In this document: one piece after another, positions 8,493-18,937 of the stretch
Position numbering within the stretch: position 1 is the stretch's first letter
Layout of the letters: each line of letters starts with the position of its first letter
IMG/VR virus record: IMGVR_UViG_638341087_000015
Coordinates: 1-51,123 of that record
Source of the DNA: a virus
Taxonomy: Duplodnaviria > Heunggongvirae > Uroviricota > Caudoviricetes
Strand: one strand, 5' to 3'
DNA: 51,123 bases
The notes under the pieces: generated by a model
The model's input: the letters and a program-made list of their open reading frames with translations, nothing else
The model's database searches: none
Told to the model about the DNA's origin: nothing
Program-made: the position numbers and the translations under genes

Positions 8493-8969
8493 TTAAGTTC
8501 CAGTTTTTGTGATGTTCTGGCTTTTTCGTTCAGATTCTAGAGCTTTCAGATACTTACCCACTTTCATTTCCATCGCTGCTATGTAGGCGCGAACATCGTG
8601 GTCAACCCAATCTGGTTCTGTAGCATTTCCAGATAACAGGAAAGCTACAATCGCTCTTATTTCATCAGAGGCTGCTTGATAAAGGTTGTTTATATCTAAA
8701 AGTTCACTTTTTGTATCTGAATTGGTGGGGGTTGGTATGGGGTATTCGTTAAGCCCCCAATGCTCTGGACCAACAACATCAGAAAAGAAACGCCATAATT
8801 CTGGAAGTTTATCTTTACTTATGGAGCCTTTCTTAATCCAGTCATAAATTGATGGTGGTTGGACTTTGAAGTGGCGTGCGACCTCCGCCTTTGATTTGAC
8901 GGATCCCGATGCGATTTTTTTGTTAATGGCCTGCTCTATCGCTCGGCCTAAGTCTTTACCACTAAGCAT
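8493..8969 (-). CDS. racR: Prophage repressor RacR-like (158 aa)
   Basis: 158-aa ORF divergent from ydaS; flanked on both sides by operator-like repeats; size and position match Rac racR. Confidence 0.75.
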   Translation of the reverse strand: MLSGKDLGRAIEQAINKKIASGSVKSKAEVARHFKVQPPSIYDWIKKGSISKDKLPELWRFFSDVVGPEHWGLNEYPIPTPTNSDTKSELLDINNLYQAASDEIRAIVAFLLSGNATEPDWVDHDVRAYIAAMEMKVGKYLKALESERKSQNITKTGT

Positions 8970-8990
8970 TGCTTAATATTCTCCTATGCT

Positions 8991-9066
8991 CATTGCATTA
9001 GGCAATCCCTACCCTCATTGCATTAGGCATAGCCTATTGACATTTATGTTAGGCGTCGCCTAATAT
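8991..9066. promoter_or_regulatory. Right operator/promoter region between racR and ydaS
   Basis: Repeats cattgcattaggca (8991..9004 and 9017..9030), 20-bp element 9021..9040, palindrome ttaggcgtcgcctaa (9049..9063); TTGACA at 9036..9041 with TAATAT at 9061..9066 upstream of the ydaS start. Confidence 0.55.
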
Positions 9067-9092
9067 TTCTGTGTGTTTTTGGAGTTCATTCG

Positions 9093-9389
9093 ATGAAAAA
9101 AGAGAACTATTCATTCAAGCAAGCTTGTGCTGTTGTCGGTGGGCAATCAGCAATGGCTAGGCTTTTAGGTGTATCACCTCCAAGCGTAAATCAATGGATC
9201 AAAGGGGTACGTCAATTGCCTGCCGAGAGATGTCCAGCAATTGAACGTGCAACAAGAGGTGAGGTTCTGTGCGAAGAACTTCGTCCTGATATTGACTGGT
9301 CATATTTACGACGTTCGGCATGTTGTTCGCAGAATATGTCAGTGAAGCAACTAAATGACAGTAACAAATCCTCATTTGATCATACCTGA
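9093..9389 (+). CDS. ydaS: Cro-like HTH protein YdaS-like (98 aa)
   Basis: ATG with GGAG RBS; divergent from racR; 98 aa as in Rac ydaS. Confidence 0.7.
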   Translation: MKKENYSFKQACAVVGGQSAMARLLGVSPPSVNQWIKGVRQLPAERCPAIERATRGEVLCEELRPDIDWSYLRRSACCSQNMSVKQLNDSNKSSFDHT

Positions 9390-9411
9390 AACATCAAGAG
9401 GCAAATGATTC

Positions 9412-9834
9412 ATGAAAATCAAGCATGAGCACATCGAATCAGTGTTGTTTGCCCTAGCAGCCGAAAAAGGGCAGGCATGGGTAGCCAATGCCATTACTGA
9501 AGAATATCTGCGCCAGGGGGGCGGCGAATTGCCCCTGGTTCCAGGCAAGGACTGGAACAATCAGCAGAATATCTATCACCGTTGGTTGAAAGGTGAAACG
9601 AATGCGCAAAGGGAAAAAATTCAGAAATTGATCCCTGCGGTTCTGGCAATTCTTCCTCGCGAGCTGCGTCACCGACTCTGCATCTTCGATACCCTGGAAC
9701 GCCGTGCATTACTGGCGGCGCAGGAAGCGTTAAGTACGGCAATTGATGCGCATGATGATGCAGTCCAGGCCGTTTACCGGAAAGCGCATTTCAGCGGCGG
9801 CGGGTCTTCCGACGATTCTGTCATTGTTCATTAA
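9412..9834 (+). CDS. ydaT: YdaT-like protein (140 aa)
   Basis: Immediately follows ydaS; 140 aa as in Rac ydaT. Confidence 0.65.
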   Translation: MKIKHEHIESVLFALAAEKGQAWVANAITEEYLRQGGGELPLVPGKDWNNQQNIYHRWLKGETNAQREKIQKLIPAVLAILPRELRHRLCIFDTLERRALLAAQEALSTAIDAHDDAVQAVYRKAHFSGGGSSDDSVIVH

Positions 9835-9846
9835 GCAAAAGTTTCC

Positions 9847-10704
9847 ATGCTGTTTGTGCTTATTCTAAGCAATCGGGCAGCATCATACGGGGCAATTATG
9901 GCCGCATTACCATACATGCAACTGTACATAGCTGATTACCTGGCTGACACCATGCATTTGTCAGCAGAGGAGCATGGTGCGTATTTGTTGCTGATGTTCA
10001 ATTACTGGCAAACAGGAAAGCCAATACCTAAAAACAGGCTGGCAAAAATTGCCCGTCTGACTAACGAGCGATGGGCTGATGTTGAACCGTCCTTGCGGGA
10101 GTTTTTTTGCGATAACGGCGAGGAATGGGTGCATCTTCGGATTGAGGAAGATCTGGCATCAGTCAGGGAAAAATTAACCAAAAAATCAGCCGCAGGAAAA
10201 GCATCGGTTCAGGCCAGAAGAAGCAGAAAGGAAGCAGATGTTCAAACAAAACAAGAGAGAAATTTAACAGGTGTTCAAACAGATGTTGAAGTGGTGTTTG
10301 AACATGATGTCAACACAAAGGCAACTAATAAAGATACAGATAAAGATCTAAAAACAGATCCCCCCCTAAATCCCCCCCGGGGGAATCGAGGTGTCAAAAA
10401 GTTTGACCCTCTGGATATTGCTTTGCCGAACTGGATTTCTGTCTCGCTCTGGCGTGAGTGGGTTGAATTTCGCCAGGCATTGCGTAAACCGATTCGAACG
10501 GAGCAGGGCGCTAACGGGGCGATACGGGAGCTGGAAAAATTCCGCCAGCAGGGTTTTTCACCTGAGCAGGTGATTCGACACAGCATCGCCAATGAATACC
10601 AGGGCTTGTTCGCGCCAAAAGGTGTTCGACCTGAGACGTTACTCCGACAGGTTAACACCGTCTCGTTACCGGATAGTGCGATCCCGCCAGGCTTCAGGGG
10701 GTAA
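9847..10704 (+). CDS. ydaU: Replication-associated protein YdaU-like (285 aa)
   Basis: Position upstream of the DnaC-like gene; 285 aa as in Rac ydaU. Confidence 0.65.
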   Translation: MLFVLILSNRAASYGAIMAALPYMQLYIADYLADTMHLSAEEHGAYLLLMFNYWQTGKPIPKNRLAKIARLTNERWADVEPSLREFFCDNGEEWVHLRIEEDLASVREKLTKKSAAGKASVQARRSRKEADVQTKQERNLTGVQTDVEVVFEHDVNTKATNKDTDKDLKTDPPLNPPRGNRGVKKFDPLDIALPNWISVSLWREWVEFRQALRKPIRTEQGANGAIRELEKFRQQGFSPEQVIRHSIANEYQGLFAPKGVRPETLLRQVNTVSLPDSAIPPGFRG

Positions 10705-10710
10705 CTGACC

Positions 10711-11457
10711 ATGAAAAATATTGCGGCAGGAGGCATTCTTGAACGTATCCGCAGACTGGCCCCGCCACATGTAACCGCCCCATTCAAAACGGTAGCGGAG
10801 TGGCGCGAGTGGCAACTTTCCGAAGGCCAGAAACGTTGTGAGGAGATCAACCGTCAGAATCGTCAGTTGCGGGTGGAAAAAATTCTGAATCGCTCTGGCA
10901 TCCAGCCATTGCACCGCAAATGCTCGTTTGCGAATTACCAGGTGCAGAACGACGGTCAGCGATACGCGTTGAACCAGGCGAAATCTATCGCTGATGAACT
11001 GATGACCGGGTGTACAAATTTTGCGTTCAGCGGAAAACCTGGTACCGGAAAAAACCATCTGGCGGCGGCTATCGGGAATCGCCTGCTGAAAGATGGCCAG
11101 ACAGTGATTGTGGTTACCGTGGCTGATGTCATGAGTGCTCTACACGCCAGCTATGACGACGGGCAATCAGGCGAAAAATTTTTGCGGGAACTGTGCCAAG
11201 TGGATCTGCTGGTTCTTGATGAAATTGGCATTCAGCGCGAGACAAAAAACGAGCAGGTGGTGCTGCACCAGATTGTTGATCGCCGGACAGCGTCGATGCG
11301 CAGCGTGGGGATGCTGACAAACCTGAACTATGAGGCCATGAAAACATTGCTCGGCGAGCGGATTATGGATCGCATGACCATGAACGGCGGGCGATGGGTG
11401 AATTTTAACTGGGAGAGCTGGCGTCCGAATGTCGTCCAGCCAGGAATTGCGAAGTGA
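10711..11457 (+). CDS. ydaV: DnaC/IstB-like replicative helicase loader (248 aa)
   Basis: Walker A motif [15 protein letters not shown] and Walker B LLVLDEIG; follows ydaU. Confidence 0.8.
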
Positions 11458-11479
11458 TTTTTACCGGGAGGAAATTTTA

Positions 11480-12241
11480 ATGGAAACCGTTTTTGATGCA
11501 CTGAAAGCAATGGGAAAAGCCACGTCGGTAGAACTGGCTGCGCGACTTGATATCAGTCGTGAAGAAGTGCTGAACGAGCTGTGGGAACTTAAAAAGGCTG
11601 GCTTCGTTGATAAAAGCGTATACACCTGGCGTGTGGCTGATAACAACGTTCAGCAGGAACAGCCAGAGCAGGCAGAACTGCCGGAAGAAACCACCACGGC
11701 AACAGTAGCGAAAATCTCAGAGTGCGATTTAACCGCGACGATTGAACAACGTGGCCCACAAACGGCGGATGAACTGGCTACGTTTTTCGGCACCACATCA
11801 CGCAAAGTGGCTTCAACGCTGGCAATGGCAATCAGCAAAGGCCGTCTGATTCGCGTTAATCAGAACGGTAAATTTCGTTACTGCATGCCGGGCGATGATT
11901 TACCAGCAGAGCCGAAAGCTGCATCGGTAACGGAAACTGATGGTAAAGCCTTTCCTCAACCAGCAGGTGTTGCGTTACCGGGACAGGAAGCTGCAACACA
12001 GGAAGATATTAAAACAGAAACTGTGGCGGACATTGTGCAGTCGTTGCCATCGTTTACCGAAACGCGAGCGGATGACCTCGTTCTGCCATCGCTGCATATG
12101 GCAAACCGCGAACTGCGTCGGGCGAAAAATCATGTCCAGAAGTGGGAGCGTGTCTGCGCCGCGCTGCGGGAGCTGAACAAGCACCGGGATATTGTTCGAC
12201 AGATTACTGATTCTTCTCGCTGTGTTGCATCGGAAAAGTGA
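11480..12241 (+). CDS. Hypothetical protein with tandem winged-helix-like segments (YdaW-like)
   Basis: ORF 11429.. trimmed to the ATG at 11480, preceded by GGGAGG. Confidence 0.45.
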
Positions 12242-12256
12242 TTGCCGGAGGCGCTT

Positions 12257-12661
12257 ATGGCAAAAGTATTTACACAAGAAGAGCGGGAAAAAATCAAGGG
12301 ACAGGTTGTTGAGCTAGTACGCCGGAGTGGGCGCGAGACGTTACGGCAACTGGAAGCCAAGACAGGTGCGACAAGATATCTGATGAGCGTTCTCGCCAGA
12401 GAGCTGGTTGCCAGTGGCGATGTATACAACTCTGGCTACGGGTTATTCCCGTCTGAACAGGTTCGTAAGGACTGGCAAAACGCCCGCAAAAAACTATCGA
12501 GGGCAAAGGCGAAGAAACCGGTTGTGGTTGATCCGGACCTTATCTGGTCATTACCAGACGGAGAAATACGCCGCTACGACAGGCGTCAGAACATGATTTG
12601 CCGTGAGTGCCGGGAAAGCAAAGGTATGCAGCGTATACTAACGTTCTATTGGGGAATATAG
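12257..12661 (+). CDS. Hypothetical protein
   Basis: Track ORF starts at TTG 12242; the ATG at 12257 has a GGAG RBS. Confidence 0.4.
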   Translation: MAKVFTQEEREKIKGQVVELVRRSGRETLRQLEAKTGATRYLMSVLARELVASGDVYNSGYGLFPSEQVRKDWQNARKKLSRAKAKKPVVVDPDLIWSLPDGEIRRYDRRQNMICRECRESKGMQRILTFYWGI

Positions 12662-12676
12662 CCACTAAATAAGGTA

Positions 12677-12988
12677 ATGAACCAAATGAACACGGAAAAA
12701 GCGAAAACGCAGCTCAGGATAATGCTTGCCGGTCCGGCTGCGAGTTATGCGACACATTCACCAGCCATAAAAAAGGTTCTTGATGAACTGGAAGCCAAAG
12801 ACAAGCGCATTGCAGAACTGGAGGCAAGGGAAGTCCAGCTACCGGCTGGCTATGAACTTCGATATGGACACCCGATAAATGCTGATGAGCGCCATGTCAT
12901 GATACCTAAGGAAAATGGCAGCTGGATTTATCTGGCTGATTTAGAGCGCGCACTACGTGTTGCTGGCATTCGCATCAAAGGAGAGTGA
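12677..12988 (+). CDS. Hypothetical protein (coiled-coil segment)
   Basis: ORF in the same orientation as the replication operon. Confidence 0.4.
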   Translation: MNQMNTEKAKTQLRIMLAGPAASYATHSPAIKKVLDELEAKDKRIAELEAREVQLPAGYELRYGHPINADERHVMIPKENGSWIYLADLERALRVAGIRIKGE

Positions 12989-12989
12989 C

Positions 12990-13346
12990 GTGGAAATAAA
13001 ACCAGAAGATGAGTTAAGTAATATTGTTTTATTTCCGGTAAAAGAAGATGACCCACGTAATCAGGTTAATTTTCTTTATGAGCCATCGGAAAGACCATAT
13101 TGCCATCACGCTTCTGTCCGGGTTGATGAAAAAGAGCGTCAGGTCCGCTGTAAAATCTGCGGTGCAGTTGTGGAGCCGTTTGACTGGATGCTCTCTGTGG
13201 CGAAAAGAGAAACCAGACTGGCAGATGATGTAAGGCTATTGCGTCAGGAGGAACGGGAAAGGCGGAAAAATATAGAAAAGCTAATTCAGATTGAGCGTAA
13301 CGCAAAAGCGCGGATACGCAGAGCGACAAAATCCAGAACTGAATAA
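12990..13346 (+). CDS. Hypothetical protein with CxxC motif (GTG start)
   Basis: AAGGAG upstream of the GTG at 12990, directly after the stop of the previous gene; the tracked start at 12957 overlaps the upstream gene. Confidence 0.4.
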   Translation: MEIKPEDELSNIVLFPVKEDDPRNQVNFLYEPSERPYCHHASVRVDEKERQVRCKICGAVVEPFDWMLSVAKRETRLADDVRLLRQEERERRKNIEKLIQIERNAKARIRRATKSRTE

Positions 13347-13443
13347 TTAAATTTAGCACTGTTAAAAATTTAATCCTTAACCGGAGGGATTTCTGCACCC
13401 TCAGAACATCAGGAGGCCGCCTGAAAGGGCGGTGGAGATAATA

Positions 13444-13965
13444 ATGGGAATAACTAAAGAACGATTGTTGGAAATAGCAAACCTTAGTGATTGGGCATTA
13501 AGTGATGAGAGAATTATTTCTCCTCATGCTTATGAGTCAGTTACAAGTATAGAAATAACCACAATGGCTAGAATGCTGCTTGGTTATTTCAAAATAGAAA
13601 ATAAAAAACAGATGGATAGTAATGTTGATATATGTGAGATTTTAGACGATTGGGGGGCTTGGGTTGTGGCTGGTAATAGTTCTATTGATTGGCAGGAAAT
13701 AGCTGATAAATATAAAAATGTTGTTCCTCATGGTAAAAAATCACGTCGTCAGTGCAGCAATGATGAAGGGCGAGTTATTGACATTAGTATCCTTAGGTTA
13801 GAAAGATATAAGCAACAAGAATATGAGTTAATTGTTGCTCATTTTGTGATTGGTTTATCTCTTCGTGCTATTGCAAAGCAACAAGGATGTTCAGATGGAA
13901 CAATTCGTAAAAGATTGCAAAAAGCCTTAGGTTTTTTGACTGGATATATAGCAATTACCAGTTAA
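13444..13965 (+). CDS. Putative Q-family (QuuD-like) antiterminator/regulator with C-terminal HTH
   Basis: Segments WGAW, SRRQCSNDEG and CSDGTIRKRLQKAL resemble the conserved core of DLP12-type Q proteins as I recall them; AT-rich; GGAG RBS before the ATG at 13444. Confidence 0.45.
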   Translation: MGITKERLLEIANLSDWALSDERIISPHAYESVTSIEITTMARMLLGYFKIENKKQMDSNVDICEILDDWGAWVVAGNSSIDWQEIADKYKNVVPHGKKSRRQCSNDEGRVIDISILRLERYKQQEYELIVAHFVIGLSLRAIAKQQGCSDGTIRKRLQKALGFLTGYIAITS

Positions 13966-14603
13966 GAGTCAGCGGGTTTTTTACCAGTGTAATGGTATAA
14001 GGATACTCCCATGTGTCTTACATGATATGGAAGCGCTGTTGCTGGATGCTTTGTGATACTCTTAAAGCGGAGGGGAGAGCCTTCCGCTTCAATTTCTGCG
14101 TCCGAAACGGTCGTAGAGAAAAATTCTTTCCATTCATTGAATTTTACTGCTGATTTGTCAGACTTTATATAAATTAGAATTCCTCCATGATCGTCACGTG
14201 ACGTACCCGTGCCGTAACGTTCGGTTAGCTGAATCCAGCCATTATGAATAGATTTGGGGCCTCTCCATAATTTTGCTTCACCGATCCATTCGAATTTTCC
14301 GAATTGATGTTTAACTAATAAATCAACGTGACCGCCATGTTGAGTATCATGTTCAACATCATAAAACCTACCTTTCAGGAAATTTTTGATCGACGCTGTT
14401 AGCTCGTCCTCTCCCCACTTAGCATCTTGATAGAAGTGTTTGTCATTTTCTAAATTCTGAATAGCGTCGTCTAAATCTTCATAGAGTTGCTTTACAAAAA
14501 TATTTTTGTCTGCAGCTAATTTTCTTTGAACCATTCCCCTAAATTCAGGATCCATTCTAATTAATGATTGAAGGTCTGCAGTACAGATGTTTACATCACT
14601 CAT
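13962..14603 (-). CDS. Hypothetical protein with PD-(D/E)xK-like nuclease motif (cassette gene 3)
   Basis: Motif HVDLLV...EWIGEAK (D then E-x-K); ATG at 14603 with GGAGAG RBS, overlapping the upstream gene stop by 8 nt; 3-prime end overlaps the convergent Q-family gene by 4 nt. Confidence 0.5.
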   Translation of the reverse strand: MSDVNICTADLQSLIRMDPEFRGMVQRKLAADKNIFVKQLYEDLDDAIQNLENDKHFYQDAKWGEDELTASIKNFLKGRFYDVEHDTQHGGHVDLLVKHQFGKFEWIGEAKLWRGPKSIHNGWIQLTERYGTGTSRDDHGGILIYIKSDKSAVKFNEWKEFFSTTVSDAEIEAEGSPLRFKSITKHPATALPYHVRHMGVSLYHYTGKKPADS

Positions 14604-15024
14604 GCAGACTCTCCAAAAGACTCGAAGGAGTAAAGTATGGATAAAGATACTGGCTAAAATTATCAACCAATTCGCCAGTTTCTGGATGGTAAAAACTTCC
14701 TGTGTCTAAAGCATAGGAAATAAGATCATCTTCAACTGGTATTGGTTCTTCCGTTAAATTATCAATGTATTGAAAATGCATATCCAATAGATGTGCTTTA
14801 TAGCTAGATAAATAATCAGTTGCTTTTATTAGCAGGATATAGTCATCTTTCGTATCAGTTAGATAGGTCAAACCATTGATAAGGGTTTTGTATGTAAAGT
14901 GATTGATATTTTTAGCATCTTTACTAACCAGAAAAAGAAAAAGATCACGACACACACTGCGAACAGGATCATTAAAATCCTGCTCTATTTGCGTGATAAT
15001 GTCGTGATATATACTCTTTTTCAT
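14596..15024 (-). CDS. Hypothetical acidic protein (cassette gene 2)
   Basis: 142-aa ORF; its ATG overlaps the stop of cassette gene 1 as ATGA (translational coupling). Confidence 0.55.
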   Translation of the reverse strand: MKKSIYHDIITQIEQDFNDPVRSVCRDLFLFLVSKDAKNINHFTYKTLINGLTYLTDTKDDYILLIKATDYLSSYKAHLLDMHFQYIDNLTEEPIPVEDDLISYALDTGSFYHPETGELVDNFSQYLYPYFTPSSLLESLHE

Positions 15025-16112
15025 TTATGGCCTGATGATCTCGCTCTTCTTTTCTCTTCACAGGACTTAACAGAATCCAATATTTTTTCAACAATAAATA
15101 TAATCGAATCAATGTTGTTACAGTTCTTCGCAATTGCTTCATGCAACCTAATTCTAGGATTATCAAGCATTGTCCTTTTCCCTGGTAATATTAACTCTAC
15201 TGATAAAATATGTGAAGAACTTTGTGGTAAATCCCAAATTTTTCCCAACTTAAACTTTGTCAATATTGGGCTTGCGGACTCTCCACTATGATGGTAAACA
15301 TCTTGACGCAAACACTTTTGACTTGGTTTGAGTTTTAAAGAACTTGTATTGCCATCTGAGGTGATAAAAGATACATGAGAAATTCTGCCATCTACTTTCT
15401 CGTAAAGATCTTGTATTGAACCAAATAATTCAAGAGGATTGTTTAAAATAACGCCAGCTTCTTTTTTTATAAAATTAGCCACAAGGTATTGTTGAGGCTG
15501 TGATTCACTTCTTGGAAGGATAGATAAATCAATCGTAAGAATTAATATTTTTTCTGCAGGCATTAGCATGATGGTATTAAAGCATTGCGTGACTTGGCGT
15601 GTTTTGCATTTTATTTCTCCACCATTAGCACGTAATTCCATACCCGCATCGCTAAGATGTGTTGGGTCAAGCTCTATCACTTCAGTGTAATACGCTTTGG
15701 ATAAAAAAACAGCAGTGTCAATTTGTTTATCACGAATGATATCTTGACGTAGTTCAGCAAAATGCAGCTCAGTATCAGCAACTAACAGCTCCTCTCTGGA
15801 TAAAGGAGTTGGGTATTTTTCTGAGAAGAGGCTATTGTCCTTTTTCTGATTTGTGAAAATTGTTTGTAATTTTGCTACGTCTTCATCGGTGATTCTATAA
15901 ATAGAAAGTAATCGATTCCCGCTAAAAATTAAACCTTTCCAGAAATCGTCGATTCTGTCTTTTAGGTCGGGATTATGCTGAACTACACTATTTACACGTT
16001 CAATAAAAAGGGGTAATCCTTGGGCCGTTACACCCAGTGATGAACCAAGAAGCTTACGGGTGTTGCGCCAGCCAAAGCGTGAATTGATGTTTTTTACTGT
16101 TTGCTCAAGCAT
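15021..16112 (-). CDS. Hypothetical protein, about 363 aa (cassette gene 1)
   Basis: Track ORF 15021..16118 begins at GTG; the ATG at 16112 has AAGGAAG 5 nt upstream; AT-rich; no motif recognised. Confidence 0.55.
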   Translation of the reverse strand: MLEQTVKNINSRFGWRNTRKLLGSSLGVTAQGLPLFIERVNSVVQHNPDLKDRIDDFWKGLIFSGNRLLSIYRITDEDVAKLQTIFTNQKKDNSLFSEKYPTPLSREELLVADTELHFAELRQDIIRDKQIDTAVFLSKAYYTEVIELDPTHLSDAGMELRANGGEIKCKTRQVTQCFNTIMLMPAEKILILTIDLSILPRSESQPQQYLVANFIKKEAGVILNNPLELFGSIQDLYEKVDGRISHVSFITSDGNTSSLKLKPSQKCLRQDVYHHSGESASPILTKFKLGKIWDLPQSSSHILSVELILPGKRTMLDNPRIRLHEAIAKNCNNIDSIIFIVEKILDSVKSCEEKRRARSSGHK

Positions 16113-16457
16113 TAACACTTCCTTAATTTTCCCTTAACAATTTAGGGTGCTAAACTTTTTTGCGCAGTTTACACAAAAAAATAGTGCGTACGCAAAAACT
16201 ATCTAACATGATGAGCTTTAACCGGGAAATTTGTATATGTTGTGAGCATAAAGTTGGCTGAGAAATTTAAAACGGGTAGAATGACTGCGGGTGCTTGAGG
16301 CTATCTGCCTCGGGCATGAACACCAAAGGCAGATAGAGAAAAGCCCCAGTTAACATTACGCGTCCTGCAAGACGCTTAACATTAATCTGAGGCCAATTTC
16401 ATGCTTTGCACATGTAGGTTAGCCTCTTACGTGCCGAAAGGCAAGGAGAAGCAGGCT

Positions 16458-16613
16458 ATGAAGCAGCAAAAGGCGATGTTAATCGCCCTGATCGTCATCT
16501 GTTTAACCGTCATAGTGACGGCACTGGTAACGAGGAAAGACCTCTGCGAGGTACGAATCCGAACCGGCCAGACGGAGGTCGCTGTCTTCACAGCTTACGA
16601 ACCTGAGGAGTAA
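16458..16613 (+). CDS. hok: Hok/Gef family type I toxin (51 aa)
   Basis: MKQQKAMLIALIVICLTVIVTALVTRKDLCEVRIRTGQTEVAVFTAYEPEE matches my recollection of HokD/RelF; AAGGAG RBS; GC-rich structured leader and trailer typical of hok mRNAs. Confidence 0.85.
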   Translation: MKQQKAMLIALIVICLTVIVTALVTRKDLCEVRIRTGQTEVAVFTAYEPEE

Positions 16614-17079
16614 GAGACCCGGCGGGGGAGAAATCCCTCGCCACCTCTGATGTGTCAGGCATCCTCAACGCACCCGCACTTAACCAGCTTTGGCGGGTAT
16701 ATTTTATCTGTGAATATTTTTATAAAAATAATGCCCACGCACAGCATAAAACAAAAAGTATTACAGATAAAAAAGGAACGTAATGTGCAGATTTGTTGTT
16801 TTCCATATTTACTCACCTTAATATGATTAACCCTGATAGGGTTGTTATCTCAGCGGTTTTCAAATGAGATATTATGGTGATCTGACAAATTTGCATAACA
16901 TTAAAATTTAATTTGTTTAACCGCTTTTAATAATAAGCGTTGTTTGTATCCCAGCAATCTGTTGTTTGGTTTTTATTCCATTAAGGAGGGGGCTTTACAC
17001 TGGAGCCAGTTTATTTATACTTCATACGTCAGCCTGAACAACTGGCATCTGCTGCGCTGCGCCATCGAGAGATTGAGAA

Positions 17080-17679: not shown

Positions 17680-17969
17680 TGGTGGATTTACGTAAAGCGG
17701 CGCGGGGGCAGATGTGCACCGTCAGAATTCCTGGCTACTGCAATCACGATCCGGAAACGTCTGTGCTGGCGCATTACCGACTGGCGGGAACGTGCGGAAC
17801 AGCGACAAAACCACACGATATGCAGGCGGCGATTGCCTGTAGCTCATGCCACGATCTAATCGACGGGCGGGTAAAAACCATCGATTACACCAAAGAAGAA
17901 TTACGCCTGATGCATGCAGAAGGTGTTCTTCGCACACAAGAAATCTGGAGAAAGGAGGGATATTTATGA
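17679..17969 (+). CDS. Nin-region protein YbcO-like (96 aa, Cys-rich)
   Basis: 96 aa with CxxxxC/CSSCH motifs; start overlaps the previous stop (TAATG); stop overlaps the Q start (ATGA). Confidence 0.5.
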   Translation: MVDLRKAARGQMCTVRIPGYCNHDPETSVLAHYRLAGTCGTATKPHDMQAAIACSSCHDLIDGRVKTIDYTKEELRLMHAEGVLRTQEIWRKEGYL

Positions 17970-18508
17970 TTTACCCAACGAATACAGGAAAAAGCGGAGA
18001 ACACCTTCGTCTCACCACGCTGGAAAGTGTCTGGATTCAGGGAAAACTACGTATGTGGGGGCGCTGGTCGTATATTGGCGGCGGTAAGACGGGGAATATG
18101 TTCAACCAGTTGTTGGCCTCTAAAAAGCTGACAAAAACGGCAATTAACGAGGCGCTCCGGAGGATGAAAAAAGCAGGTCTGAACAAGTCTGAACTTGAGG
18201 CTTTTTTGCGGGATATGATTAACGGTAAGCAAAAGAGCTGGCTGGCGCATTGTACTGATGCAGAGGCGTTATGTATTGATCGGGTCATAAGTCAGGTGCT
18301 GGCAGAGCATCCAGGATTGATTAGCGTCCTTCGGCAACGGTATGAGGGGCGGGGGATGACCAAACGCAAAATGGCTGAATTGCTAAATGATGCACACCCA
18401 GAGTGGTGTTTTAGCACATGCGAAAAGCGAATTGCTAATTGGTTGGCCGTTGCTGAGTATGCGCTATACATTCCCATGCGAGAATCATTCTCTCAAAAAA
18501 CGGCTTGA
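17966..18508 (+). CDS. Putative late-gene antiterminator Q (180 aa)
   Basis: ATG at 17966 preceded by AAGGAGGG; last gene before the tRNAs and lysis cassette, the canonical Q position. Confidence 0.5.
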   Translation: MIYPTNTGKSGEHLRLTTLESVWIQGKLRMWGRWSYIGGGKTGNMFNQLLASKKLTKTAINEALRRMKKAGLNKSELEAFLRDMINGKQKSWLAHCTDAEALCIDRVISQVLAEHPGLISVLRQRYEGRGMTKRKMAELLNDAHPEWCFSTCEKRIANWLAVAEYALYIPMRESFSQKTA

Positions 18509-18594
18509 TTTTTTACGCATAAACTGCTTCAATTTTGCTACGCTTCGCAAAGCTGTATCGCGAGGCGAATCAAGCGCAATTAAACTTTAATAGA

Positions 18595-18620
18595 ACCCGC
18601 CATCGAGCGGGTTTTGTTGT
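18595..18620 (+). terminator. Intrinsic terminator-like hairpin downstream of Q
   Basis: acccgc-catcga-gcgggt stem-loop followed by a T-rich tract. Confidence 0.4.
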
Positions 18621-18861
18621 TTCTGTGGTGTGATATCAGAAACGACATTTAATCATCGCCTTCAAAATAAATTTATTTATATGTTGTTGTATATATTTTA
18701 AGTGAAAGTGAATTATTCACATAAAATAAAAACATATAAATAAATTTACATAACTTGACGCAAACTGTTGTTGCGATTGGAATATTAAATCGTATCATCG
18801 AAAACGGTTCTGAGGGGGAACTCTTCTTTGAACGGTGATATCGCTCCCCTGAAGAACCAAT

Positions 18862-18937
<76 letters not shown>

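Follow-up and report, generated by a model that had tools for sequence, protein, structure and literature searches.

A second Q-family gene in a prophage and its predicted binding site beyond convergent cargo genes

The DNA analysed here, referred to throughout as the window, is a 51,123-nucleotide (nt) stretch from a virus of the Caudoviricetes (IMG/VR virus record IMGVR_UViG_638341087_000015, positions 1 to 51,123). Its lysis genes are preceded by a Q-like gene in the canonical position (Q2), and a second gene of the Q antiterminator family (Q1) lies about 4 kilobases (kb) upstream. The locus raises the question of what a second Q protein does in a prophage whose late genes are already served by one. 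A first-pass annotation had suggested that Q1 may be a regulator co-acquired with an adjacent three-gene island. We found that Q1 is intact and genuinely related to phage Q antiterminators, and that its predicted binding site is located 2.2 kb downstream, past the convergent genes of the island (referred to as cargo), where it overlaps the -35 hexamer of a predicted cargo promoter. Our best explanation, to which we give rather less than even weight, is that Q1 made upon induction would bind this site at 16186-16198 and shut off the cargo. The coordinates of all features are given in Table 1.

Q1 is an intact member of the Q21/QuuD family

The Q1 reading frame starts at an ATG located 7 nt past a GGAG, ends with TAA at 13963-13965, and encodes a product containing the motifs WGAW (residues 70-73), SRRQCSNDEG (100-109) and CSDGTIRKRLQKAL (149-162). 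Core motifs of this kind had led to the initial suggestion of a QuuD-type antiterminator, and profile searches bore this out: PF06530 (Phage_antitermQ) matched residues 62-171 with 109.4 bits against a cut-off of 26 (E 1.3e-31), and phrog_79, described as 'Q-like', matched with E 3.9e-34. BLASTP against QuuD of Escherichia coli K-12 gave 35% identity (E 3e-26), with Q1 residue 62 pairing with QuuD residue 3. Similarity to the protein in the Q21 structures (PDB 6P18/6JNX) was detected by phmmer with a single sequence (E 8e-4) and with a profile (E 5.6e-8), in an alignment that spans Q21 residues 19-99 only. The gene is undamaged and is not a pseudogene here: the protein shares 97% identity with a 106-member cluster, and the DNA is 99% identical to the corresponding locus of enteropathogenic E. 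coli (EPEC) E2348/69, located at 1436810-1439980 of NC_011601.

Two parts of the protein bear on its function. The sequence SLRAIAKQQGCSDGTIRKRLQKALG forms a canonical helix-turn-helix without the long loop present in Q21, and Sigma70_r4_2 matched it at residues 128-163 with 24.9 bits, just below the cut-off of 25.7; TIGR02937 also matched below threshold, and together the hits span residues 124-165. Upstream of it is a basic segment in which P95, G97, K98, K99, R101, Q103, C104, D107, E108 and G109 are near-invariant. This segment aligns to a stretch of Q21 which, from the published description of the Q21 structure (bioRxiv 10.1101/651190), we infer to form the torus at the RNA exit channel. 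Pairwise identity among the long forms of Q1 described below is 73% in the basic segment versus 63% in the helix-turn-helix. An AlphaFold2 model built from a 48-sequence alignment had a predicted local distance difference test (pLDDT) score of 50 and was unusable.

The core is preceded by an N-terminal extension which had been noticed in the first-pass annotation, where its length was put at about 50 amino acids (aa); it is in fact about 59-61 aa long, and it is absent from QuuD, Q21 and the short forms. Initiation within the frame at Met57 would yield a short form, but this was rejected, as codon 57 is Val in other long forms and no ribosome-binding site precedes Met57, whereas ATG 13444 has a GGAG. 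A tblastn search with the extension retrieved long-form loci only, and no match was found in 50,697 phage records. The extension does match phrog_3323, a family of unknown function. A search for stand-alone homologues turned up only truncated or frameshifted Q1 alleles. Nor does the extension appear to be a fused upstream open reading frame (ORF), since it has no similarity to the 85-aa ORF preceding short-form Q, and derivation from the gene occupying the same slot in a Q1-less phage was rejected in the same way (no similarity to the slot gene of locus L008).

Homologues of Q1 fall into two groups. Long forms have 170-185 aa and come from E. coli and Salmonella; short forms have 113-120 aa, are approximately 60% identical to Q1 over the core, and come from many Enterobacterales. 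Short-form genes follow immediately after replication genes, and a second Q of four other kinds (DUF1133, PF03589, PF06323, Q21) was not found by tblastn within 10 kb of them, so we regard them as the Q proteins that serve the late genes of these prophages. A second, canonical Q from one of three families (DUF1133, PF03589 or PF06323) is, in contrast, present in all long-form loci for which enough sequence was available. Among 5426 complete E. coli genomes, 68 carry the long form, each as a single copy, and RefSeq always labels it 'antiterminator Q family protein'.

In the window the canonical Q is Q2, correctly placed at 17966..18508 by the first-pass annotation. It matches PF06576 (DUF1133) with E 2.5e-107 and phrog_753 ('Q-like'), its match to PF06530 is barely above the cut-off of 26 (27.6 bits), and BLAST found no similarity between Q2 and Q1. 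Downstream of Q1 the order is convergent cargo, hok/sok, DUF1367, YbcO, Q2, tRNA-Thr, tRNA-Gly and essD/rrrD-like lysis genes. Q1 is thus not the late-gene switch of this prophage, as had also been suggested in the first-pass annotation.

Several observations were made around Q2 and its equivalents. DUF1133 proteins occupy the Q position of several of these prophages, and are called Q-like in PHROGs and simply 'DUF1133 family protein' in RefSeq. Past Q2 there is a strong terminator-like hairpin (18588-18619) followed by an AT-rich stretch, and just upstream of the tRNAs (about 18756-18798) TTGACG is followed after about 18 nt by GAATAT, with a second -10-like hexamer, TATCAT. This region may be the late promoter on which the DUF1133 protein acts. 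Promoter matches of the form TCGGCA-16-TATAAT at 18929 in the window and at 11774 in locus L004 are inside tRNA genes and were rejected as promoters. In the long-form prophage L094 (NZ_CP134805.1, 9836-12861), type I restriction-modification genes HsdM and HsdS come after hok, replacing the nin genes and Q in the stretch fetched.

The predicted binding site and its recognition helix

The first-pass annotation had proposed looking for a qut-like site downstream of Q1. Immediately after the gene such a site is impossible, as the stop codons of Q1 and cargo gene A overlap, so that neither a terminator nor a promoter would fit between the two genes; the AGTTAAGAGTC present at 13960 is no better than a chance match. 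The predicted site is instead found beyond the cargo, where a palindrome, GCGTACGC, is followed by an A-tract. Of the 78 loci then fetched, 27 contain the exact 13-mer GCGTACGCAAAAA as a single copy, which lies downstream of the Q gene and on its strand. When one mismatch was allowed in its first 12 nt, the site was found 0.65-2.6 kb past the Q stop in 29 of 32 close-subfamily loci (one genome per species). It adjoins Q in none of 38 QuuD-like loci, in which two one-mismatch copies sit 6.7-8.5 kb off. A generalised core, CGWWCGNAAAA, matches the 51-kb window only at 16186-16198, although a single match is not above chance. The exact 12-mer GCGTACGCAAAA was kept in all six types of long-form locus, 55-85 nt upstream of the cargo start, while the surrounding DNA up to hok could not be aligned.

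The identity of the site comes from its co-variation with the recognition helix of the Q protein. The helix CSDG(T/S/K)(I/V)R is accompanied by the palindrome core GCGTACGC (46 loci), CSDG(H/Y/T)IGK by ACGTACGT (15 loci), and CSDT(H/Y)IGK by ACGATCGT (11 loci), in a sample of about 70 loci that are not all independent. The helix of the window (13888-13911) and its palindrome (16186-16193) fit this three-way match of DGTIRK, DGHIGK and DTHIGK seen across loci L003-L091. Arg155 accompanies the outer G:C pair, and the change from Gly152 to Thr accompanies a change from TA to AT in the centre. Since the class of palindrome follows the recognition helix, we read the palindrome and A-tract as the probable Q-binding element of this branch. 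On this reading Q1, as a member of the Q21/QuuD antiterminator family, would bind DNA at a specific sequence, and we infer, with some reserve, that it binds the element in the window.

Short-form loci have a conserved block headed by the 13-mer, CTAAC-GCGTACGCAAAAA-c-TATCGT-AATCTG-t-TAAGAGTGGT, followed by a hairpin and then by a GC-rich stem with a T run. We read this block as a putative late-promoter cassette, and its layout fits the annotated late promoter of phage 21, in which the binding element lies in the spacer and is followed by the -10, the start, TAAGCTG at +2 to +8, and a terminator. In QuuD-like loci the homologous cassette usually begins 8-12 nt past the Q stop and has the core ACGTACGT or ACGATCGT. 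The -10-like hexamers of the block overlap, and the fact that the hairpin begins one base before TAAGAG favours TATCGT as the -10 rather than as a pause element.

The hairpin of the short-form cassette shows compensatory changes between loci. In the alignment 86.8% of cells are paired, compared with 31-46% when the partner columns were slid, and two-sided changes were counted in 29 cells as against 9.2 +/- 2.1 in shuffles, none of 500 of which reached 29. Pair 1-31, for example, is UA (n=17), AU (n=13) or GC (n=1), and pair 10-19 is AU (n=14), GC (n=10) or GU (n=5). No Rfam family matches it. RNAalifold applied to the ungapped cassette alignment returned no hairpin because of register shifts, and per-sequence folding and a named structure recovered it. 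The form nUAAGAGUG..CAC..CUUAn plus an intrinsic terminator is seen, for instance, in L004 (9967-10060), L018 (11891-11960) and L037 (7200-7270), and this leader hairpin may be the short late-promoter transcript of this Q branch.

The complete series of promoter, pause element, hairpin and terminator is intact in short-form and QuuD-like relatives, whereas the last three have been lost in the window. What follows the site there is a degenerate remnant, cTATCTAACATGATGAGCT, in which TATCTA or TAACAT stands for the -10 and TGAGCT takes the place of TAAGAG; an intact TGnTAAGAGTG is absent from the window. Hairpin and terminator are absent from all long-form loci examined. By inspection, a plus-strand -10-like hexamer is found at the expected spacing in two of the six long-form types, as against five of six for a minus-strand cargo -10. 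As judged from these loci, the long forms are without the pause element, hairpin and terminator, and their late genes have their own Q.

These remnants bear on the main rival to repression of the cargo, which is that Q1 is still an antiterminator. It would load onto RNA polymerase at a weak rightward promoter (-10 TAACAT, 16204-16209) and give rise to terminator-resistant transcription that runs across hok and the nin-like genes and on into Q2, in a cascade leading from Q1 to Q2 to the late genes. Conservation of both the torus-aligned segment and the helix-turn-helix under purifying selection would be expected of such a protein, the orientation of the site relative to Q1 is constant in all loci, and the equivalent protein-site pair of the short relatives very probably does carry out antitermination. 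If a 1-nt deletion is allowed, both a TAnnnT hexamer and a TG also fall at consensus positions in the window. The critical A of TAAGAG has nevertheless gone, the hairpin and terminator are missing in the long-form types examined, few long-form types have the -10-like hexamer at the right spacing, a Q1-less relative with hok and a canonical Q in the same order does without Q1, and between 16217 and Q2 we found no strong intrinsic terminator for Q1 to override. We therefore regard continued antitermination as unlikely, though deserving of more weight than the other alternatives to shut-off of the cargo by Q1.

A decayed cassette could also mean that Q1 is a hitch-hiking relic, that is, that a unit of Q, cargo and late promoter recombined into a Rac/Qin-like backbone already equipped with a Q, leaving Q1 without a role and the 12-mer preserved only as the cargo -35. 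The rarity of the long form in E. coli and the frameshifted or truncated long-form alleles in several E. coli clusters (P0121, P0125, P0126 and P0026, one of which has 17 members) are in keeping with this. The substitution pattern argues otherwise. The ratio of nonsynonymous to synonymous substitution rates (dN/dS) in the Q1 core is 0.09-0.35 at dS 0.5-1.6, showing that the core is under purifying selection. The reading frame has been preserved alongside six kinds of cargo, in E. coli as well as in Salmonella, the recognition helix has kept its specificity residues, and the 56-codon extension is still open in DNA of 32% G+C. All 12 nt of the 12-mer are invariant even though TTGCGT is a poor -35 that could be improved by mutation. 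A relic is accordingly quite improbable in our view. The 5' part of Q1 is far less diverged than the core (dS 0.06-0.4) and seems to act as a left recombination flank.

The cargo slot and the role of Q1

The limits of the module were determined by blastn against a related phage without Q1, vB_EcoS-689R5: homology ends at 13433 and restarts at 16276, at the hok promoter, so that the module comprises 13434-16275. The gene Q1 has 35% G+C and lies at the start of a trough of 33-38% (13.4-16.2 kb) between flanks of about 50%, which agrees with the first-pass description of an AT-rich gene convergent with a three-gene cassette. The block 13368-16698 is 99% identical in EPEC E2348/69, the backbone of which has a different canonical Q similar to a PF06323 Q. 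The co-acquisition proposed earlier holds in so far as Q1 travels with the AT-rich cassette. The relationship is reversed, however: Q1 is not an accessory of the island, and the island is, from its layout, cargo inside a Q unit, inserted between the Q gene and its predicted binding site in an arrangement common to dozens of relatives with other cargo.

The slot between Q and the site holds one to three ORFs, which are almost always all convergent with Q. The stop codons of Q and the cargo are a median of 21 nt apart, and they overlap in 7 of 33 loci. Six unrelated types of cargo were found between Q1 and hok in long-form loci (the three-gene cassette of the window; a DUF6731 protein of 159 aa; a large membrane protein together with an NA37 protein, in two versions; a protein of 332 aa; and a pair of 182 and 309 aa), and more than 20 variants in short-form loci. 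In relatives the slot contains the validated defence system PD-Lambda-5, as A+B in L023 (E 1e-93 and 8e-27) and as PD-Lambda-5_A in L012 (E 4.5e-75), as well as the PADLOC candidates PDC-S42 in L004 and PDC-M53 A+B in L016. In the window, the translation of cargo gene A includes GGHVDLLV...WIGEAKLW, a PD-(D/E)xK-like nuclease motif (D...EAK), and its single match in PADLOC was a weak one to PDC-S54 (E 0.0016). The cargo of the window is probably composed of anti-phage defence genes.

A recurrent two-gene cargo was observed in Salmonella, Shigella, Xenorhabdus and E. coli (L085 7513-9880, L025 10339-12709, L037 4748-7101 and L093 7050-9513). It consists of a protein of about 400-480 aa, the C-terminus of which we read as hydrophobic, and a partner of about 350-380 aa that in two of the four loci has NA37 (PF04245) or the annotation 'nucleoid-associated protein'. 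PADLOC gave no match for the pair in L085, and this cargo is a candidate new defence system.

The predicted site is also part of a promoter-like sequence for the cargo. On the minus strand it reads TTTTTGCGTACGC, and when the TTGCGT within it was taken as a -35, a -10-like hexamer was found 16-18 nt further on in 22 of 33 loci, compared with 4.2 expected; a -10-like hexamer was defined by A at position 2, T at position 6 and at least four of six matches, and the expectation was taken from other offsets in the same sequences. The cargo start codon is 55-90 nt past the site in most loci, and in the window it is ATG 16112, with the Shine-Dalgarno sequence AAGGAAG. As the predicted cargo -35 sits inside the Q site, the late and cargo promoters would lie back to back and have the Q site in common, and this overlap makes a regulatory role for the cassette plausible.

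Shut-off of the cargo by Q1 can then be pictured as follows. In the repressed prophage Q1 would not be made, and the cargo would be transcribed from its own promoter. Upon induction Q1 would be made from the early operon, would bind 16186-16198 and would occlude the cargo promoter; early transcription, with no terminator between Q1 and the cargo, would in addition run head-on into it, and the late switch would be left to Q2. Probable defence genes would in this way be off during the lytic growth of the prophage itself. In the short relatives the same site lies inside the putative late-promoter cassette, with its -10, TAAGAG pause-like element at +2, hairpin and terminator, and would also supply the -35 of the divergent cargo promoter.

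Several findings count against this proposal. The torus-aligned basic segment is as conserved as the helix-turn-helix, although a pure repressor would have no need of it, which favours continued contact with RNA polymerase, and the proposal does not account for the N-terminal extension. The frameshifted alleles show that Q1 has been lost, and is dispensable, in some lysogens. The long-form type L085 is without a good -10 at the expected spacing, and conservation of the 12-mer could partly come from its use as a -35 and as an upstream T-tract alone. Finally, the cargo of the window contains no Pfam or NCBIfam family above threshold and no known defence system beyond the weak PDC-S54 match.

A further alternative concerns targets elsewhere. 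Where other prophages or incoming phages carry the GCGTACGC site, Q1 might act on them in trans, turning their late operons on or blocking them, as cross-talk or exclusion. Short-form Q of the close subfamily is common in E. coli, with protein clusters of 138-384 members, GCGTACGC is used by all the sampled close-subfamily loci that have a site, and the recognition helix is identical in long and short forms. Yet we found no promoter from which a lysogen would express Q1, and action in trans leaves unexplained why the site stays beside the cargo of Q1 itself. Of the explanations considered, this one seems to us the least probable.

If shut-off of the cargo is extended from Q1 to the QuuD branch as a whole, the Q palindrome would serve back-to-back promoters for late genes and defence cargo, and Q would couple lytic development to shut-off of defence, avoiding self-targeting. 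The long form of the window would then be an antiterminator turned into a dedicated controller of the defence slot, having gained an N-terminal domain and lost the pause and terminator cassette. We regard this wider reading as less likely than not, and rate it somewhat below the proposal for Q1 alone.

Table 1. Positions of Q1, the cargo, the predicted regulatory elements and the right flank in the window
Feature	Coordinates	Strand	Description
Leader upstream of Q1	13327..13443	+	three small hairpins and GGAG ribosome-binding site
Q1	13444..13965	+	long-form Q21/QuuD-family protein, 173 aa
Q1 N-terminal extension	13444..13626	+	residues 1-61; long forms only
Q1 basic segment	13711..13788	+	VPHGKKSRRQC.NDEG..ID; residues 90-115; conserved
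Q1 helix-turn-helix	13855..13938	+	sigma-region-4-like; recognition helix CSDGTIRK
Cargo gene A	13962..14603	-	213 aa; phrog_9664; stop overlaps Q1 stop in TTAA 13962-13965
Cargo gene B	14596..15024	-	142 aa; phrog_11490; function unknown
Cargo gene C	15021..16112	-	363 aa from ATG 16112; phrog_12777; function unknown; start as in RefSeq for E2348/69
Predicted cargo promoter -10	16166..16171	-	TAAACT; 18 nt from -35
Predicted cargo promoter -35	16190-16195	-	TTGCGT; within predicted Q site
Predicted Q-binding element	16186..16198	+	palindrome GCGTACGC plus A-tract; 13-mer GCGTACGCAAAAA
Degenerate late-promoter cassette remnant	16199..16217	+	cTATCTAACATGATGAGCT against consensus cTATCGTAATCTGTTAAGAG; neither hairpin nor terminator after it
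hok/sok module	16254..16613	+	promoter-like site, sok/hok RNA, mok/hok ORFs; conserved right flank
Q2	17966..18508	+	DUF1133 Q-like protein; canonical position ahead of tRNAs and lysis genes

On its left side Q1 closes a tightly packed rightward operon on the plus strand, the upstream genes of which extend over 9093-13346 in the order YdaS/Cro-like (9093), YdaT, DUF1376, IstB/DnaC-like, DUF1627, DUF977, Ea22-like, Zn-ribbon protein and Q1. A promoter scan found no plus-strand promoter-like site upstream of Q1. The last 110 nt or so before the Q1 ATG are nearly identical in six long-form loci, and the leader is common, up to 13433, to the Q1-less phage with different genes in the slot. The region 13327-13443 has the look of a conserved mosaic junction or of a regulatory leader. 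On the right side, Rfam sok was matched at 16289-16463 with 115.8 bits, and HOK_GEF was matched as well.

Prior knowledge and comparison with known systems

The Q family and the antitermination paradigm are already known (bioRxiv 10.1101/651190; PMC6606751), accessory genes of lambdoid prophages are known to tend to follow the replication genes (PMC13043305), and RefSeq already labels the Q1 gene as Q family. In the searchable literature, including that on DUF6731, quuD, the context of PD-Lambda-5 and lambdoid defence hotspots, we found no description of the palindromic site and its helix code, of cargo inserted between Q and its site (an arrangement seen also in K-12 DLP12, with nmpC), of a divergent promoter sharing the Q site, or of the long form. 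If the present reading is true, a branch of the Q family gains a DNA recognition code, with three helix variants matched to three palindromes, and there would be a simple mechanism by which prophages, once induced, avoid being harmed by the defence genes they carry. The conserved slot between Q and its site, which holds PD-Lambda-5 and many uncharacterised cassettes, can be mined for new anti-phage systems. The label 'antiterminator Q family' does not necessarily denote a late-gene switch, since in 68 of 5426 complete E. coli genomes in RefSeq it is given to a gene about 4 kb upstream of a Q-like gene that precedes the lysis genes.

Among known systems, AntQ of Gifsy-1 was considered as a parallel and rejected, as by inspection it has the position of a canonical Q, immediately upstream of isrK and ahead of the lysis genes. 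Q21 shares PF06530 with Q1 and aligns with it at WGAW and at R..C.DD.G. The short relatives of Q1 resemble phage 21 in that the site falls within the promoter spacer, with a -10-like element of the TAAG type at +2 and a terminator after it. Q1 differs from Q21 in its canonical helix-turn-helix, which in Q21 is a helix-turn[loop]-helix, and in its site, an 8-bp palindrome with an A-tract as opposed to two 8-bp direct repeats. Unlike Q21, it has 59-61 extra N-terminal residues and a site 2.2 kb off, past the cargo, in a window without the pause element and terminator.

QuuD (YbcQ), from the cryptic K-12 prophage DLP12, is closer to Q1, with 35% identity and a helix-turn-helix of the same type, and in DLP12 a convergent gene, nmpC (disrupted by IS5), likewise lies between quuD and the cassette. 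QuuD, however, has 127 aa and no extension, the helix CSDGYIGK and the site ACGTACGT; it is the sole Q of DLP12, and the cassette is intact. The start of nmpC is about 370 nt from the site, so that the DLP12 site is not the nmpC -35. The DLP12 cassette, TTTACGTACGTAAAAA...TGTTAAGAGTGG...hairpin...terminator, was located at 12199-12280 of L003 (NC_000913.3), 2.86 kb downstream of quuD (8957-9340), past nmpC and about 120 nt upstream of essD, and is probably a QuuD-dependent late promoter.

The short forms (113-120 aa) share with Q1 the recognition helix, the GCGTACGC site, tightly packed convergent cargo and a cargo -35 within the site. They differ in being without the extension, in being the only Q found within 10 kb, and in having the full cassette of promoter, hairpin and terminator ahead of the late genes.

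A functional parallel may be drawn with the C proteins of restriction-modification systems, which are small helix-turn-helix proteins that bind a palindrome over the promoter of a linked and potentially self-harmful defence operon and time its expression. The likeness would be one of analogy, and homology is not claimed. C proteins are co-transcribed with the genes they control, whereas Q1 is convergent with its presumed target and would be made from an early operon of the phage.

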